Positions 30,001 to 36,000 of a DNA stretch of 37,960 nucleotides are shown piece by piece. The stretch is from IMG/VR virus record IMGVR_UViG_2522572021_000015; one strand, given 5' to 3'. Source of the DNA: a virus. Its lineage: Duplodnaviria > Heunggongvirae > Uroviricota > Caudoviricetes. The position numbers are program-made. Positions within the stretch are counted from its first letter, which is position 1, and the number at the start of each line of letters is the position of its first letter.

Positions 30001-33000
30001 CAAGAAATGAAAAAAGGCCACGCAGTTGCGCAGCCTGATAAACCCTGGTTAAAATCCACACGATAACAACACAACAATATCAGTATCTCATGCTATTGCC
30101 CGAACCCATTCGGGCATTTTTTACCCATAAAACATGCCCCTCCGGAGAGGGGCATGTTTGCATGCACATTCTTTTTCTTGCATGGTGCCGGGTGCCTCCC
30201 GGTGAATTCAGTATCAGCACCTGAATCCGCGATTATCACATATACCTGGTTGCTGATTGCCCCTCCGCACAGGGGGATTCACCATGCAGTAGTATTTTTA
30301 ATAAACAGTAAACAAAAAAATCAAGCATTATGCAGGCTGTTTCTTTTTATCACCGGCCACAGCAATACCACAATGCCGCAGACCAGAGCGCCATCAGTCA
30401 GTACCAACATTATCCTGCTGGTGAAATCCATCATCACCATCACTAAAAGCAGGATCACAACAGCAAGCAGACACAGTTTATAAAACAATGTTCAGAAAAC
30501 GCATTCAGCATGCCTAAGGTTCTATTCCTACGAATAGCCAACTTGCAACTTAAAATATTATTTATGCAGCCAATTAAATTCTGGTCCTTACAATATCAAC
30601 CTGAAGATTCTTATCTTGTGCTGATTGATAAATCACAAACCTTTTACTACCTGCATTGAAAGAAGTAGACAAAACCAGACAATTATCATAACGAGCAAGA
30701 ACATAATACCAACCATCATTATAATTAATCATTTCATATTCTTTCTTAAACTGCGGTTTGTAATATCCTGTCAGAAATGAAAAAAGCCAGAAATATGCCA
30801 CAAAAGCAATCATCACAATCTCAAAAAAATGTTTTTTTATAAATGGCTTATCATAGAAGCATGATACCGATAAAAATCGCCCATAAGATCTTATCGAAAT
30901 TGTGACCGCCAGCGCAATCGCTGCTGACAGTAGCAAAAGAGGTACCTGAATCTTCTGTCTCAATATAGAAAACTCAATAATTGCCGGCACAAACAATAAT
31001 TCCACAGCAAAATAAAGGCGAAATACATTTAGCTCTTGCATAGAATGTTTTCTTTTCACTGCGAAAAAGAATACAACACCAATACCCCAACCGATAAGAA
31101 ATATAGCAATGACGATAACTGCAAAAAATAAACTTCTGGCAACATCATCAACACCTGCACCTACAATCCACCATGGGAAGCCGTAGTAAAAAGAAGTACC
31201 CCATCCATAGAAATAAGCACTCCCCCATCCAAGGCATCCCATGTAGGCAATAAAAAGTGAAGAACTCCTGAGCAGCGCACCATCCTTCATAACCACCCCA
31301 ATACAAGATGATAACATTGGCTTACAACTCATAACAAAAGCAATTCAATGCCGTCAAGAGGTTACAGGCTAAAAAAACTCTATTACATTGCAGTCAGCAT
31401 GTTTACTACACAAATACAATTCAGAGCATAAAAACTACTCGGCGGCAGGTTATTGAGACTCATCAATGACATGTAAAAAACGCCCATTATTGGTGTCAAG
31501 TTTCCCCAAAGTTATTCAAAAAGTCAATATTATGCCGTTAATATGTTGCCATCCGTGGCAATCATGGCGCTAACGTGTGATCGCATTCAAAATGTTGTCT
31601 GCGATTGACTCTTCCTTGTGGCATTGCACAACCAGAGCGTCATACAGCGGCTTAACAGTGCGTGACCAGGTGGGTTGGGTAAGGTTTGGGATTAGCATCG
31701 TCACAGCGCGATATGCGGCGCTTGCTGGCATTCTTGAATAACCGACGCCTTTACATCTTCCGCACTCTTTCTCAGCAACTATCCCCCACTGCTCTGTTTT
31801 GGCTATATCAACCGCACGGCCTGTACCGTGGCAATCTCTGCATCTTGCGCCCGGCGTAGCGGCACTACGGCAATAATCCGCATAAGCGAATGTTGCGAGC
31901 ACTTGCAGTACCTTTGCCTTAGTATTTCCTTCAAGCTTTGCCACGCCACGGTATTTCCCCGATACCTTGTGTGCAAATTGCATCAGATAGTTGATAGCCT
32001 TTTGTTTGTCGTTCTGGCTGAGTTCGTGCTTACCACAGAATACAGCCATTCCGAATCCGGCTTGTGATTGCGCCATCCCCATAGCAGCCATCACATCAGT
32101 ACCGGAAAGAGAGTCAGAAGCCGTGGCCCGTGGTGAGTCGCTCATCATCGGGCTTTTTGGCGAATGAAATTTAGCTACGCTTTCGAGTCTCATGCGCCTT
32201 CTCCCTGTACCTGAATCAATGTGAGGTTTCCGCAGAACACTGCGCCAGTATCGATATACATCTGGTTGGCAAATTTGAGTGGTTTCACTGCTGGCGTATG
32301 ACCAAAGATGAACGTGTCCGCGCCTTTGATTTCTTTCACGATCCCGTCTTGTGAGTTGCTGATTCGTTCGCGGTTCCAGATTACCTGCTGATGATCAACT
32401 GGCTTTCCAAACTCGTATTTATCACAAGGATAATCGGCGTGGCAGATGACATATTTTTTTCCTTTACTCACCAGTTCGATGATTAACGGAAGTTCATCTG
32501 CTTTATGGGCAAGAGCTTTAGCCAGAATTTCTTTGTCGTAATCGAGATTAAAGAACCAGCCACCGCCATTAAGCAGCCAGTGATTGACGTTTCCACGCTC
32601 TGATAAGCCATCAATCATCATTTGCTCATGGTTTCCACGTACAGCTCTGAACCAGGGGAATGTGATTAATTCCAGGCATTCTACGTTCTCTGTACCGCGA
32701 TCAACCAAATCGCCCACCGAGATAAGCAGGTCTTTTTTGGTGTCGAATCCTATCGTCTCCAGTTTTTTCATCAGGTTCGTGTAGCATCCGTGCAGATCGC
32801 CAACTACCCAAATATTTCGGTATTTGCTGCCATCAATTCTTTCGTAGATATTCATGCAACCTCACTTCTGCTGTTTCGCAGTTTTTTAAGTTTCTGTTGA
32901 TACTCCGCCTTGATGGCCCTGCACTCTTCGACAGTCCAGCGATAGCGGTTATGGTTTGATTCGATTTCCTCTACTGCTTCCTGCCCGATGCGGCTAATCA

Positions 33001-36000
33001 GTTCGACGCGATACGGAACGAGATTTCCGCTTTTGTGCTGGTTGCACACCACGCATTGCTTGTGAATATTGCGTTCATCAAATCGGAGTTGAGGTGCCGC
33101 AGCAGTTGTCCGGTAATGTCCGGCATCCCACTGAGCAGACGTGAGCGTTCCGCACGAGATACATGGTAAGTCGCGGTCTCTTTCTCTGATGAAGGCGTTT
33201 ACGGCTTGTTGGGCTTGTTTAATCCAGTAACTGCGGGGCTTTAAGGCGAGTTTTTGAATCTTAAGTTTATCTTTCTGTTTCTGCTCCTCTCGTCGTCGTT
33301 TCTTCTCTGCTGCCTTTTCTGCCTTTTCCGCTTTTTCGCGTTCTTTACTTCGTCGTTAGAGTGCTATCTTGGTTCCACAAATCTCATTACACCAATATTG
33401 ATTTTGATATTTTGGTATAAACCATTCATTGCAACATTTACATTTCCTTCGATAGATTCGCATAAGTGCTCCTTTCGTTGCCGGAAAAATCACCGTAATA
33501 CTTATCTCGGGCTTCTTCAGCAACTAGTACCGCTAACTCCAGATCATCAAAGCATCCGAAGTGTTTACTCTTGCCATGGAATCCTAGCCTAACATTCCAT
33601 TTTTTCTGTCGTTTGTGCCAAGTAACCCCTCTGCAACCTGATTTGCTATTCTTTCGGATCCTTATATTTCTTGAATTTTCTATTGGCAGGCATTCTCTTA
33701 AATTTTCTGGCCTATTGTCGGTCCTAATTCCATTAACGTGGTCAATTTGACCAGCAGGCCAACGATTATGAGTTATGTAAAAAACTAAGACGTGAGTTTT
33801 ATATCTACGCCCATCTATCATGATCATTGAATAACCGTTGGAATCAAAAGCTCCAGCAACACTATTTAATGCTATCCTTCCCTGAGTGGGAACTTTCCAT
33901 CTAAATACCCCGGTAGATTTATCGAAACTTAGTAACTCAAATATCCTTTTAACAGTTAAATCTTCTCTTTTACGGTTACATCGTCTTCGCGCTGGTTTAG
34001 CCATCGCCTTCTTCCTCCGTAATGGTTTTCTGAATTTGGCCACCTGAACAGAGCTCACCAAAGCTATGGATGTCGGTATTTCCACAATACCAAGATGGCG
34101 AAAATAACTGCATGATAAGCCTCAGGGAAAAGGGAAGACACTACCCCCGATAATTCAGAAACAAATCGAAATACATGAACTAAAGAAAAAATCACAACAA
34201 ATAGAAATAGAAATAGAAATAGAAATAGAAATAGAAGTAGAAATATTAAAACAGACCACCACATTCCTGATGTCATACTCACTAAACAATTTTTCGACAA
34301 CATGGTAGCTCATAGCACGTTATCGTGTAGACACCCTCTGCTACGTATTCGGTGTTCAGTGCAATATCTACAAATACTGGAAAAATCTAAAATCGAGGCA
34401 AGTTTTTAGTGATAACTATAGTTAGACTATATTGACGACCTGATGTGCTGTATGTAATAACTAACAAAAAATATTTTCCATGGGGTTTTTTATTTTAATG
34501 AAATGCAAAATATTTTTATCAATAGTTAGTATTATGGAAAACCATTAATTCAGGAGGAAACTTGATTCCAAATTCAACTTCAAATAAAGGTTATGTATGC
34601 ATTGACATGCAGTGTTCGTCAACCTCTGAACCAACAGCTTCTACCTCCAGCAACCGGAGTATTAAATTAGCCGCTTCCACAAATGTATATCCGATAACAA
34701 GAAACGACTCCGAGCTCACTCTGAACGATTTTCTTGATAATAGCTCTTCTACGTCATCATTGGACTACATTAATGAATTGGGTTCTCAACTGACGTTAAA
34801 TGATTTTCTTGACAACATAAAGACAAATGAGGTGGATAGAACATGTACGGATGTGGTAATTAATATCCCACAAGAGATACAAACAAATACACAGGAAAAT
34901 GATTTGTTATTATCCGATAAAAATAATTCAATATGCATTGAAATCGATGAAAGAATTACAAAAATCCTAACATGCAAGCAAAAATATCAACTGGACAGCA
35001 TCATTCATGAAATTATACCAAAAGAGAATGAGAGTGCAGAAACTGTTCTCCATCTTATGAGAGTTCTGAACGATCAATATCATCAGGTATATAATCAGTC
35101 AGGATGTTTTTATAAAGCCTATATGGCCATACACAATAAAATCGAACAGATACTTCCATATGCGTTCAGAGCCGGAGGCGGAATCAGCATTCACTTGCTC
35201 ATACAGGCATTATTTTTTAATGGCGACTATAACAAATCACCTTCACAGTCTCAACAACCATCTTTATATACATCACCTTCTCCAACAATAAATACAGAAG
35301 CATTCTTAAGTAATGTATTATCACTAGATATAACCCAGGTACGCATACTTGGTGATTTACTATCAGCAACTTTATTTCATGCACCAACAATATTCTATCA
35401 ATATCCTAAACTAATAGATGAAGTTAAGTATTGTATAAGTAATAAAAAAATAACAGGTTCGGTTATAGCACGATTTACTCTATGTTTAACAAGTACATTA
35501 CTAACCATGTCACCACTGTTAATGCTTAATGGAGCAGTTAAAACAGGTAGCATAGTAAGAACTATAGGTAGGGGAGTGAGTTATGCTGATATACCATTGG
35601 CCTTAGCTATATTAGGTGACTCATGGTATAAAGCTTATAAACATGGTTCTTCTGATAACCCAAATTCTGCTCAGAGATTTATATCGCAAGAAGCGGCCTT
35701 TAAAACCACCCAGCGGGTATTAACACAAGGATTAAGTCTGATGTCCTCTTTATCGGGAGCAATCATGCGCTCTCTTGAGAAAGGCACACCACCACAAATG
35801 ATGTCTTTATTCATCGTAAACATACTAAATCTATTATTTCATCAAAATCCATATGAAGGGGCATCAGCAAGTGCTAATGCTTTGAAAAGATCAACTTACT
35901 CCCATAATCCGGACATACTAAATACTCAGGCAATAGCTCTTTGTGTTGACCTCCAGCATACAAAAAATATAACCATGCCACTTTTCAAAACAAAAGACAG

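Follow-up and report, generated by a model that had tools for sequence, protein, structure and literature searches.

A candidate HNH-AP2 homing endonuclease cassette that uses the ninG start and carries a substitute ninG 5′ end in lambdoid prophages

Results

The stretch of DNA analysed here (37,960 nucleotides, IMG/VR virus record IMGVR_UViG_2522572021_000015; the window) comes from a lambdoid prophage in which an HNH endonuclease gene lies within the first codons of ninG (rap). Sequence comparison indicates that this locus carries a mobile cassette of ~600 bp with two parts: an HNH-AP2 gene body that lacks a start, and a unit that is predicted to rebuild a complete NinG frame downstream. The cassette appears to take over the expression signals of ninG without destroying the gene, because the HNH gene uses the ninG start and ninG gets a new one. 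We consider it probable that the element is a free-standing HNH-AP2 homing endonuclease cassette of the intronless-homing kind, which uses the ninG start and carries a diverged ninG 5′ end. The insertion as such is not expected to inactivate ninG; in the window only a nonsense codon appears to do so.

The endonuclease frame begins at the ninG start codon

The features of the upstream part of the locus are as follows.

33438-34004, minus strand: HNH-AP2 endonuclease open reading frame (ORF), 188 aa, RefSeq WP_001108081.1, ATG at 34004-34002
33978-34004, minus strand: original ninG ATG and codons 1-9 (MAKPARRRC), in frame with the HNH body
34014-34018, minus strand: GGAGG, a Shine-Dalgarno-like element 9 nt upstream of the ATG, from the original ninG start

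A sequence-only reading of the window had described an HNH/AP2-type ORF that begins at the ninG ATG with MAKPARRRC and then stops, and the ORF is as described. The segment of codons 1-9 is identical to ninG of lambda, phage 2B8 and prophage X14-3, and the relatives of the HNH protein are without it. The GGAGG element is conserved in HNH-bearing and HNH-free alleles and now probably serves the HNH ORF, whose ATG is overlapped by the TAA of an upstream ORF (GATGGCTAA). Within the HNH ORF no internal Met occurs before residue 59, and the original ninG ATG is the only start common to all of its backgrounds, which indicates that the endonuclease uses the translation start of ninG. The dependence of a start-less HNH ORF on the native ATG and ribosome-binding site of ninG is thus well supported by sequence, and the suggestion that the HNH gene took over the ninG start agrees with it. 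The RefSeq annotation of E. coli RM13514 lists both an 'HNH endonuclease' (WP_001108081.1) and a 'recombination protein NinG', the latter as a pseudogene with an 'internal stop'; in Sakai the two genes are ECs_3504 (HNH) and ECs_3503 (NinG).

The cassette replaces the ninG 5′ end with a diverged homologous copy

The downstream part of the locus contains the following features.

33380-33975, minus strand: cassette-specific DNA, 596 bp, ~38% GC
33470-33475, minus strand: AAGGAG Shine-Dalgarno site inside the HNH ORF, 6 nt upstream of the substitute ninG ATG (AAAGGAG)
33380-33463, minus strand: substitute ninG 5′ end, 84 nt, ATG at 33463-33461 and 28 diverged codons
33438-33463, minus strand: overlap of the HNH ORF end and the substitute ninG start, 26 nt, in different frames
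32852-33463, minus strand: ninG (Rap) pseudogene, 203 codons, stopped at codon 36; Pfam NinG after repair
33356-33358, minus strand: TAA nonsense codon, GAA to TAA by a G-to-T change, Glu36 to stop

Alignment to intact ninG, proposed earlier as a check on the insertion, defined both junctions. The alignment comprised six HNH carriers (AU6Stx1, SH2026Stx1, Sakai Sp17, VCSW5, UMNF18 and P393-F10) and three uninterrupted alleles (lambda, phage 2B8 and prophage X14-3). All aligned alleles have the first 29 nt of ninG (ATGGCTAAACCAGCGCGAAGACGATGTAA) in common, and the left junction lies directly after ...CGATGTAA. From there, 596 bp in the HNH carriers stand for 64 bp of uninterrupted ninG (third base of codon 10 to codon 31), and identity to lambda picks up again at TGTGGAACCAAG / TGTGGAACCAAGATAGCACTC, at Cys32 of lambda NinG. 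The cassette adds a net 532 bp; ninG therefore resumes in another frame (32852-33463), a point that the sequence-only reading had made correctly. The distance from the old to the new ATG is 541 nt, with a remainder of 1 on division by 3. The GC content of the cassette is ~38%, versus 49-51% for ninG, Q and the whole window.

The AAGGAG site in front of the new ninG ATG is invariant in HNH-bearing loci (0 segregating sites at alignment positions 501-550). The 28 substitute codons are homologous to residues 1-31 of lambda NinG and occupy 84 nt, versus 64 nt for the lambda type. They retain the pattern Arg-Arg-x-Cys, Glu-Trp-Phe, Asn-Gln-x-Trp-Cys and Cys-Gly-Thr-Lys, and their DNA is strongly diverged and AT-rich. 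From codon 29 on, ninG shares 95-98% DNA identity with lambda ninG.

The opening of the HNH ORF with the first nine residues of NinG and the 26-nt overlap of the two ORFs could also be read to mean that the HNH body is a true N-terminal domain of a NinG variant, joined to the rest by programmed frameshifting or split by a sequencing artefact. The frames differ, however, and the same arrangement occurs in several hundred independent assemblies, while hundreds of uninterrupted ninG alleles are without the segment. The downstream part has a strong Shine-Dalgarno site, an ATG and a full NinG N-terminus (lambda residues 1-31), and inspection by eye revealed no slippery motif in the overlap. The HNH relatives end ~14 residues before the stop codon, and the tail at residues 181-188 is modelled with low confidence. 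We regard this explanation as extremely improbable; an HNH-NinG fusion made through frameshifting is already contradicted by the frames, the ninG start and the missing motif. The different frames, the overlap and the separate annotations bear out the earlier description of an insertion rather than a NinG domain.

ninG survives the insertion and is stopped by a lineage-specific nonsense codon

The insertion is not expected to inactivate ninG, because the cassette supplies a Shine-Dalgarno site, an ATG and 28 substitute codons that lead into a complete NinG frame. The downstream ninG is an intact 200-203 aa coding sequence in Sakai Sp17 (ECs_3503), AU6Stx1, SH2026Stx1, VCSW5, UMNF18 and P393-F10. 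Among IMG/VR loci of sufficient length it is likewise intact in 46 of 52, and a complete NinG of 200-203 aa was found in 52 of the 58 HNH-bearing loci read. The claim that the insertion had left ninG a pseudogene is therefore not upheld, since the cassette brings a new ninG start and most carriers have an intact gene.

The ninG of the window is nevertheless a pseudogene, as had been proposed and as the RefSeq label of an internal stop also states. As it stands, it ends at codon 36 and so is not a full-length intact NinG/Rap ORF; with GAA restored, it matches Pfam NinG (PF05766) with E=2.8e-82. The TAA reported at 33356-33358, where lambda has GAA, is present in the window, and all nine other aligned alleles (lambda, AU6Stx1, SH2026Stx1, Sakai Sp17, VCSW5, UMNF18, P393-F10, 2B8 and X14-3) carry GAA at this site. 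After the TAA there is no in-frame restart until a GTG at 33052, ~100 codons on.

A sequencing or assembly error at this codon, or read-through of it, would leave ninG functional in the window, and the TAA does differ by one base from all the other alleles examined. A 61-nt probe with the TAA at its centre, however, has a 100% match in 9 of 815 records, all of them independently assembled O145 genomes, and in 0 of the 806 others; the TAA is also found in 2 of 56 IMG/VR loci. The recurrence of the same base in the nine O145 genomes only, together with the two IMG/VR contigs, indicates that the TAA is real and lineage-specific. The RefSeq internal stop, the distant restart and the other frameshifted genes of the prophage also speak against an error or read-through, which we consider hardly credible. 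The nonsense mutation is separate from the insertion, is confined to the O145 lineage and fits ordinary prophage decay.

A 9-bp in-frame duplication (GAAAAGGCA) lies in the Lys/Glu-rich region of the window ninG (~33318-33335, minus strand). It results in 203 instead of 200 codons and is also present in Sakai Sp17, the Stx1 phages and phage 2B8.

The HNH protein combines an HNH_3 motif with a probable AP2-like domain

Two segments of the HNH ORF match known families.

33684-33803, minus strand: HNH_3 motif
33492-33638, minus strand: AP2-like domain

Residues 68-107 match Pfam HNH_3 (PF13392) with E=4e-11 and 42.7 bits (cutoff 24.8), and residues 123-171 match Pfam AP2 with E=2e-4 and 22.1 bits, under the cutoff of 33.3. 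The protein also matches the PHROG family phrog_99, 'HNH endonuclease' (E=7e-71). In an alignment of 14 sequences (the HNH protein and 13 relatives), the motif is invariant in its D-H, N-L-R and N columns and at D88, H89, N101 and N110; the catalytic beta-beta-alpha-metal set (His as general base, one structural and one metal-ligand Asn) is thus in place. The inserted gene thus passes the sequence tests for an HNH endonuclease and is assigned on that basis to the HNH_3 subfamily.

The AlphaFold (AF2) model of the protein has a mean predicted local distance difference test (pLDDT) score of 82, with pLDDT <50 in the tails: residues 2-12 at the N-terminus and, also at low confidence, residues 181-188 at the C-terminus. 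The best PDB match of the N-terminal half is the HNH homing endonuclease I-HmuI (1u3e; probability 1.00, 99 columns). The C-terminal half superposes on the AP2 domain of AtERF1 (1gcc) with a root-mean-square deviation of 1.3 Å over 51 columns, and also on the AP2 domains of WRI1 and TEM1; AP2 DNA-binding domains of plants or apicomplexans rank best among its PDB matches. On fold, though not on profile, an AP2 domain is supported. A sequence search of the PDB with the HNH protein gave only a weak AP2 match.

A tblastn search found HNH relatives in 2,514 phage records. Many of the relatives carry a homing endonuclease annotation and belong to lytic phages of the Jersey-like and T5-like kinds. 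Apart from the two Stx1 phages, none exceeds 60% identity, and the best among the matches listed reaches ~45%. The relatives align to HNH residues ~12-174 only and end ~14 residues before the stop codon, which suggests that both tails are local acquisitions. The N-terminal tail consists of the nine NinG-derived residues and a short linker, and the C-terminal tail ends in residues that come from an out-of-frame reading of the new ninG start.

Other assignments were considered for the gene. The features of an intein or of an intron-encoded endonuclease (an in-frame insert with splicing motifs, or a self-splicing intron at its flank) are not seen: the HNH ORF ends in a stop, ninG starts anew in another frame from an ATG of its own, and the Pfam matches are HNH_3 and AP2 only; intron RNA was not searched for. 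A role in anti-phage defence was rejected, as PADLOC gave only a negligible ZorE match (E=0.008). HNH proteins of the HK97 gp74 type sit beside terminase genes; the gene described here lies in the nin region and belongs to HNH_3, and this assignment was also rejected.

The cassette occupies one site in diverse lambdoid backgrounds

Among 5426 complete E. coli genomes, 538 carry the HNH body (564 places), which is ≥99% identical in 536 of these carriers. The search for the same gene at other loci, suggested along with the insertion, led in every locus examined to the ninF/ninG junction. These 538 genomes also contain the substitute ninG 5′ end (569 places), which is strictly linked to the HNH gene: no carrier of the substitute 5′ end without the HNH gene was found among them, and the sole candidate, PK8241, has an IS3 element between HNH and ninG. 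All 63 HNH-bearing loci read have the cassette at one site, with an identical left junction in 62, and in these loci 17 upstream and 10 downstream flank types are joined to it. The HNH ORF is intact in 55 of 56 IMG/VR loci. Its polymorphisms comprise 13 synonymous and 12 non-synonymous changes and no stops, giving a ratio of non-synonymous to synonymous polymorphism (pN/pS) of ~0.25 (binomial P=7e-4), which indicates purifying selection on the ORF. The candidate target, the lambda-type 5′ end of uninterrupted ninG, is widespread (872 places, 834 E. coli genomes) and highly conserved, with a nucleotide diversity (pi) of ~0.01; among 54 HNH-bearing haplotypes, pi of the cassette is ~0.004, with a sharp rise upstream.

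Insertion sequence (IS) elements were seen at or near the HNH/ninG overlap in two strains. In PK8241 (locus L074, 732-1945) the IS3 element separates the HNH gene from ninG, and in Z1323CEC0014 (locus L008, 3153-4381) an IS2 element splits the substitute ninG; the two insertions are independent of each other. In the small junction alignment, a C at position -2 had appeared to be linked to the cassette; it is also the consensus in HNH-free alleles and was dropped as a candidate.

These data bear on whether the cassette homes at present. It could be an inert relic, in which a single HNH entry into ninG was followed by clonal descent and recombination of lambdoid nin modules. The near-identity of the copies, many of them from O157:H7 clones, fits a relic, as do the similar mosaic flanks and low internal diversity of HNH-free ninG and the presence of HNH-bearing and uninterrupted alleles on one chromosome without conversion. 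Damaged copies also occur: one has a frameshift (locus L070), N97T and N101S are singletons, and IS insertions are found. Against a relic stand the low pN/pS with no stops among the 25 polymorphisms (P=7e-4), the intact ORF in 55 of 56 loci with intact catalytic residues, and the joining of the cassette to at least 17 unrelated upstream contexts with the same left junction in 62 of 63 loci. On balance we find the inert relic unlikely.

Several observations weigh against the reading of the cassette as a homing element. Most copies are clonal and come from O157:H7, and the cassette could have spread through the ordinary mosaic recombination of lambdoid phages. The diversity profile was tried as evidence of a sweep or co-conversion and rejected: 66 HNH-free haplotypes show the same sharp boundary and low ninG diversity, and so the profile cannot discriminate homing from modular recombination. 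Searches for a donor gave no HNH protein of 60-99% identity to the cassette HNH in phage records, one distant planctomycete locus only among GTDB species representatives, and no phage NinG N-terminus with more than 66% identity (36 aa) to the substitute one. On the side of the protein, the AP2 match lies under the Pfam cutoff, and Foldseek gives weak E-values (8.6e-3). O157:H7 chromosomes, for example those of PV15-279 and TR01, also contain both the cassette allele and an uninterrupted ninG of perfect consensus, at the following places.

NZ_AP018488.1, 892290-892399 and 3587507-3588327: coexisting ninG alleles in different prophages
NZ_CP033605.1: likewise

Such coexistence is expected if the HNH gene is silent or repressed in lysogens; an inactive enzyme fits it equally well, and so does one with another target.

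Prophage setting and neighbouring genes

The whole window corresponds to positions 3357556-3395515 of E. coli O145:H28 RM13514 (NZ_CP006027.1) with 0 mismatches. The lambdoid prophage adjoins smpB and ssrA (tmRNA at 698-1060), and its genes run from ninE through an opposite-strand 590-aa ORF to HNH, ninG, ninI and Q, followed by lysis, head and tail genes; HNH, ninG and the neighbouring nin features are all on the minus strand. Near its attachment end the prophage carries nleG7, a type III effector gene (2174-2824). The further features are listed here.

22076-24198, 10674-11416, 15146-15448 and 37634-37960: other inactivated prophage genes (RefSeq annotation)
34562-36334, plus strand: 590-aa ORF, AT-rich, ~33% GC, between ninE and the HNH gene
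34199-34245: hexanucleotide tandem repeat (AAATAG) x 7.8 in the AT-rich spacer from the 590-aa ORF to the HNH gene
33997-34113, minus strand: upstream ORF at the ninF position, 38 codons, ending ...EEEGDG*

According to RefSeq, the large terminase and the C40 (gpK-like) peptidase genes of the prophage are frameshifted, that for tail-assembly protein T is truncated, and an IS3 transposase at the window edge is frameshifted. The RM13514 prophage is defective and decaying.

The 590-aa ORF has no Pfam or PADLOC match, and its sole match is phrog_9230 (unknown function); it is moron-like. It occupies the same place in the Stx1 phages AU6Stx1 and SH2026Stx1 and in strain Z1323CEC0014, and Sakai Sp17 has other genes and a partial IS30 at this position. 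The stretch with the (AAATAG) repeat is 60 bp longer in SH2026Stx1, and the repeat may be variable in length.

Only the last ~15 nt of the upstream ORF resemble ninF, and homology to ninF-bearing loci begins ~15 nt before the ATG. The ORF has no Pfam or PHROG match, and its non-ninF part is unrelated sequence common to the O157, O145 and Stx1-phage versions. A full ninF lies upstream of HNH in VCSW5, UMNF18 and P393-F10. On the other side of ninG, ninH is absent from the window and the ninG stop overlaps the ninI start (32852-32855), as in phages 434 and 2B8; ninH sits between ninG and ninI in lambda, VCSW5 and P393-F10 and directly after ninG in both Stx1 phages. UMNF18 encodes a NUMOD4-domain protein between ninB and a methyltransferase gene (locus L007, 688-1290), and P393-F10 has an additional HNH endonuclease downstream of Q (locus L009, 5356-5515). 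Endonuclease-type genes may often land in lambdoid nin regions.

Discussion

Both genes of the locus are already annotated in RefSeq and other public records, and the advance made here is therefore one of interpretation; in the library of papers searched, none connects ninF or ninG with an endonuclease of the HNH or homing kind. In the mechanism that we propose, the endonuclease would be made from the delayed-early nin transcript in lytic growth and would cut or nick uninterrupted lambda-type ninG close to its conserved 5′ end. Recombinational repair off a cassette-bearing genome would then copy the cassette into the cut genome, by intronless homing or marker exclusion. The split of ninG and the diverged substitute 5′ end would shield carriers from self-cleavage: the carrier allele differs from the candidate target near the insertion site and is presumably resistant. 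The codon-36 G-to-T change would have come later, in the O145:H28 prophage, and would be unrelated to the cassette. The fuller proposal, that the cassette is an active 'start-swap' homing element of temperate lambdoid phages, which expresses its endonuclease from the start of the invaded gene and provides a cleavage-resistant replacement start, is tentative; the arguments for and against it are close to balanced, with a slight lean against.

Provided that the enzyme is active, the cassette would exemplify intronless homing among temperate lambdoid phages of pathogenic E. coli. It is located a few kilobases upstream of Q and, in two Stx1 phages, also upstream of stx1, and gene conversion could for this reason sway the inheritance of late-regulatory and toxin-linked modules. 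As an active start-swap unit, it would invade in a phenotypically silent manner, and its enzyme could bias the inheritance of nin, Q and stx-proximal segments when lambdoid and Stx phages co-occur in a cell. A selfish gene could thus enter a coding sequence without cost by borrowing the start of the host gene and supplying a substitute. For annotation, an HNH insertion alone should not be taken as a disruption of ninG, and the O145:H28 ninG pseudogene stems from an unrelated nonsense mutation.

Compared with lambda NinG/Rap, the window ninG has a diverged replacement of its first 28 codons, a TAA at codon 36 and no ninH before ninI. The HNH protein resembles I-HmuI (1u3e) and other HNH_3 enzymes in its HNH_3 motif and D-H...N...N residues, and the N-terminal half of its model superposes on I-HmuI, to which it is only 19% identical. 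I-HmuI is intron-encoded and has DNA-binding modules other than AP2. By sequence, the nearest relatives (≤45% identity) are found among the uncharacterised genes of lytic Jersey-like and T5-like phages.

By analogy, the arrangement appears to match the free-standing homing endonucleases of T-even phages (SegF at genes 56/69, SegG and MobE; reviewed in PMC2988022). In T-even intronless homing or marker exclusion, an allele that lacks the endonuclease gene is cut and repaired from a carrier, which copies the gene with its flanks (PMC2988022). As in these systems, the endonuclease gene of the ninG cassette lies beside or within a conserved phage gene with no intron or intein, near-identical ninG alleles are polymorphic for its presence, and the neighbouring gene is diverged in the carrier; by the same analogy, gene conversion with flanking markers would be expected. 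In contrast to the T-even systems, which belong to lytic T4-like phages, the ninG cassette has a temperate lambdoid phage or prophage as its host. Unlike SegF, SegG and MobE, the endonuclease is fused to the first nine codons of the invaded gene and has no start of its own, and the cassette gives the invaded gene a new ribosome-binding site and start.

A further parallel is Aeromonas phage Aeh1, where, as far as the review's citation of the work describes it, a mobE insertion splits nrdA, leaving a ribonucleotide reductase encoded by 'genes-in-pieces' (Friedrich et al. 2007, cited in PMC2988022). On that account, both loci have an HNH gene within a coding sequence whose function is kept through a translation start belonging to the downstream part. 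Both halves of Aeh1 NrdA, as described there, are needed and assemble after translation, whereas the upstream piece of ninG amounts to nine codons that NinG does not reuse. Relative to Aeh1 as so described, the ninG cassette differs in that it swaps the whole N-terminus for a homologous, diverged copy.

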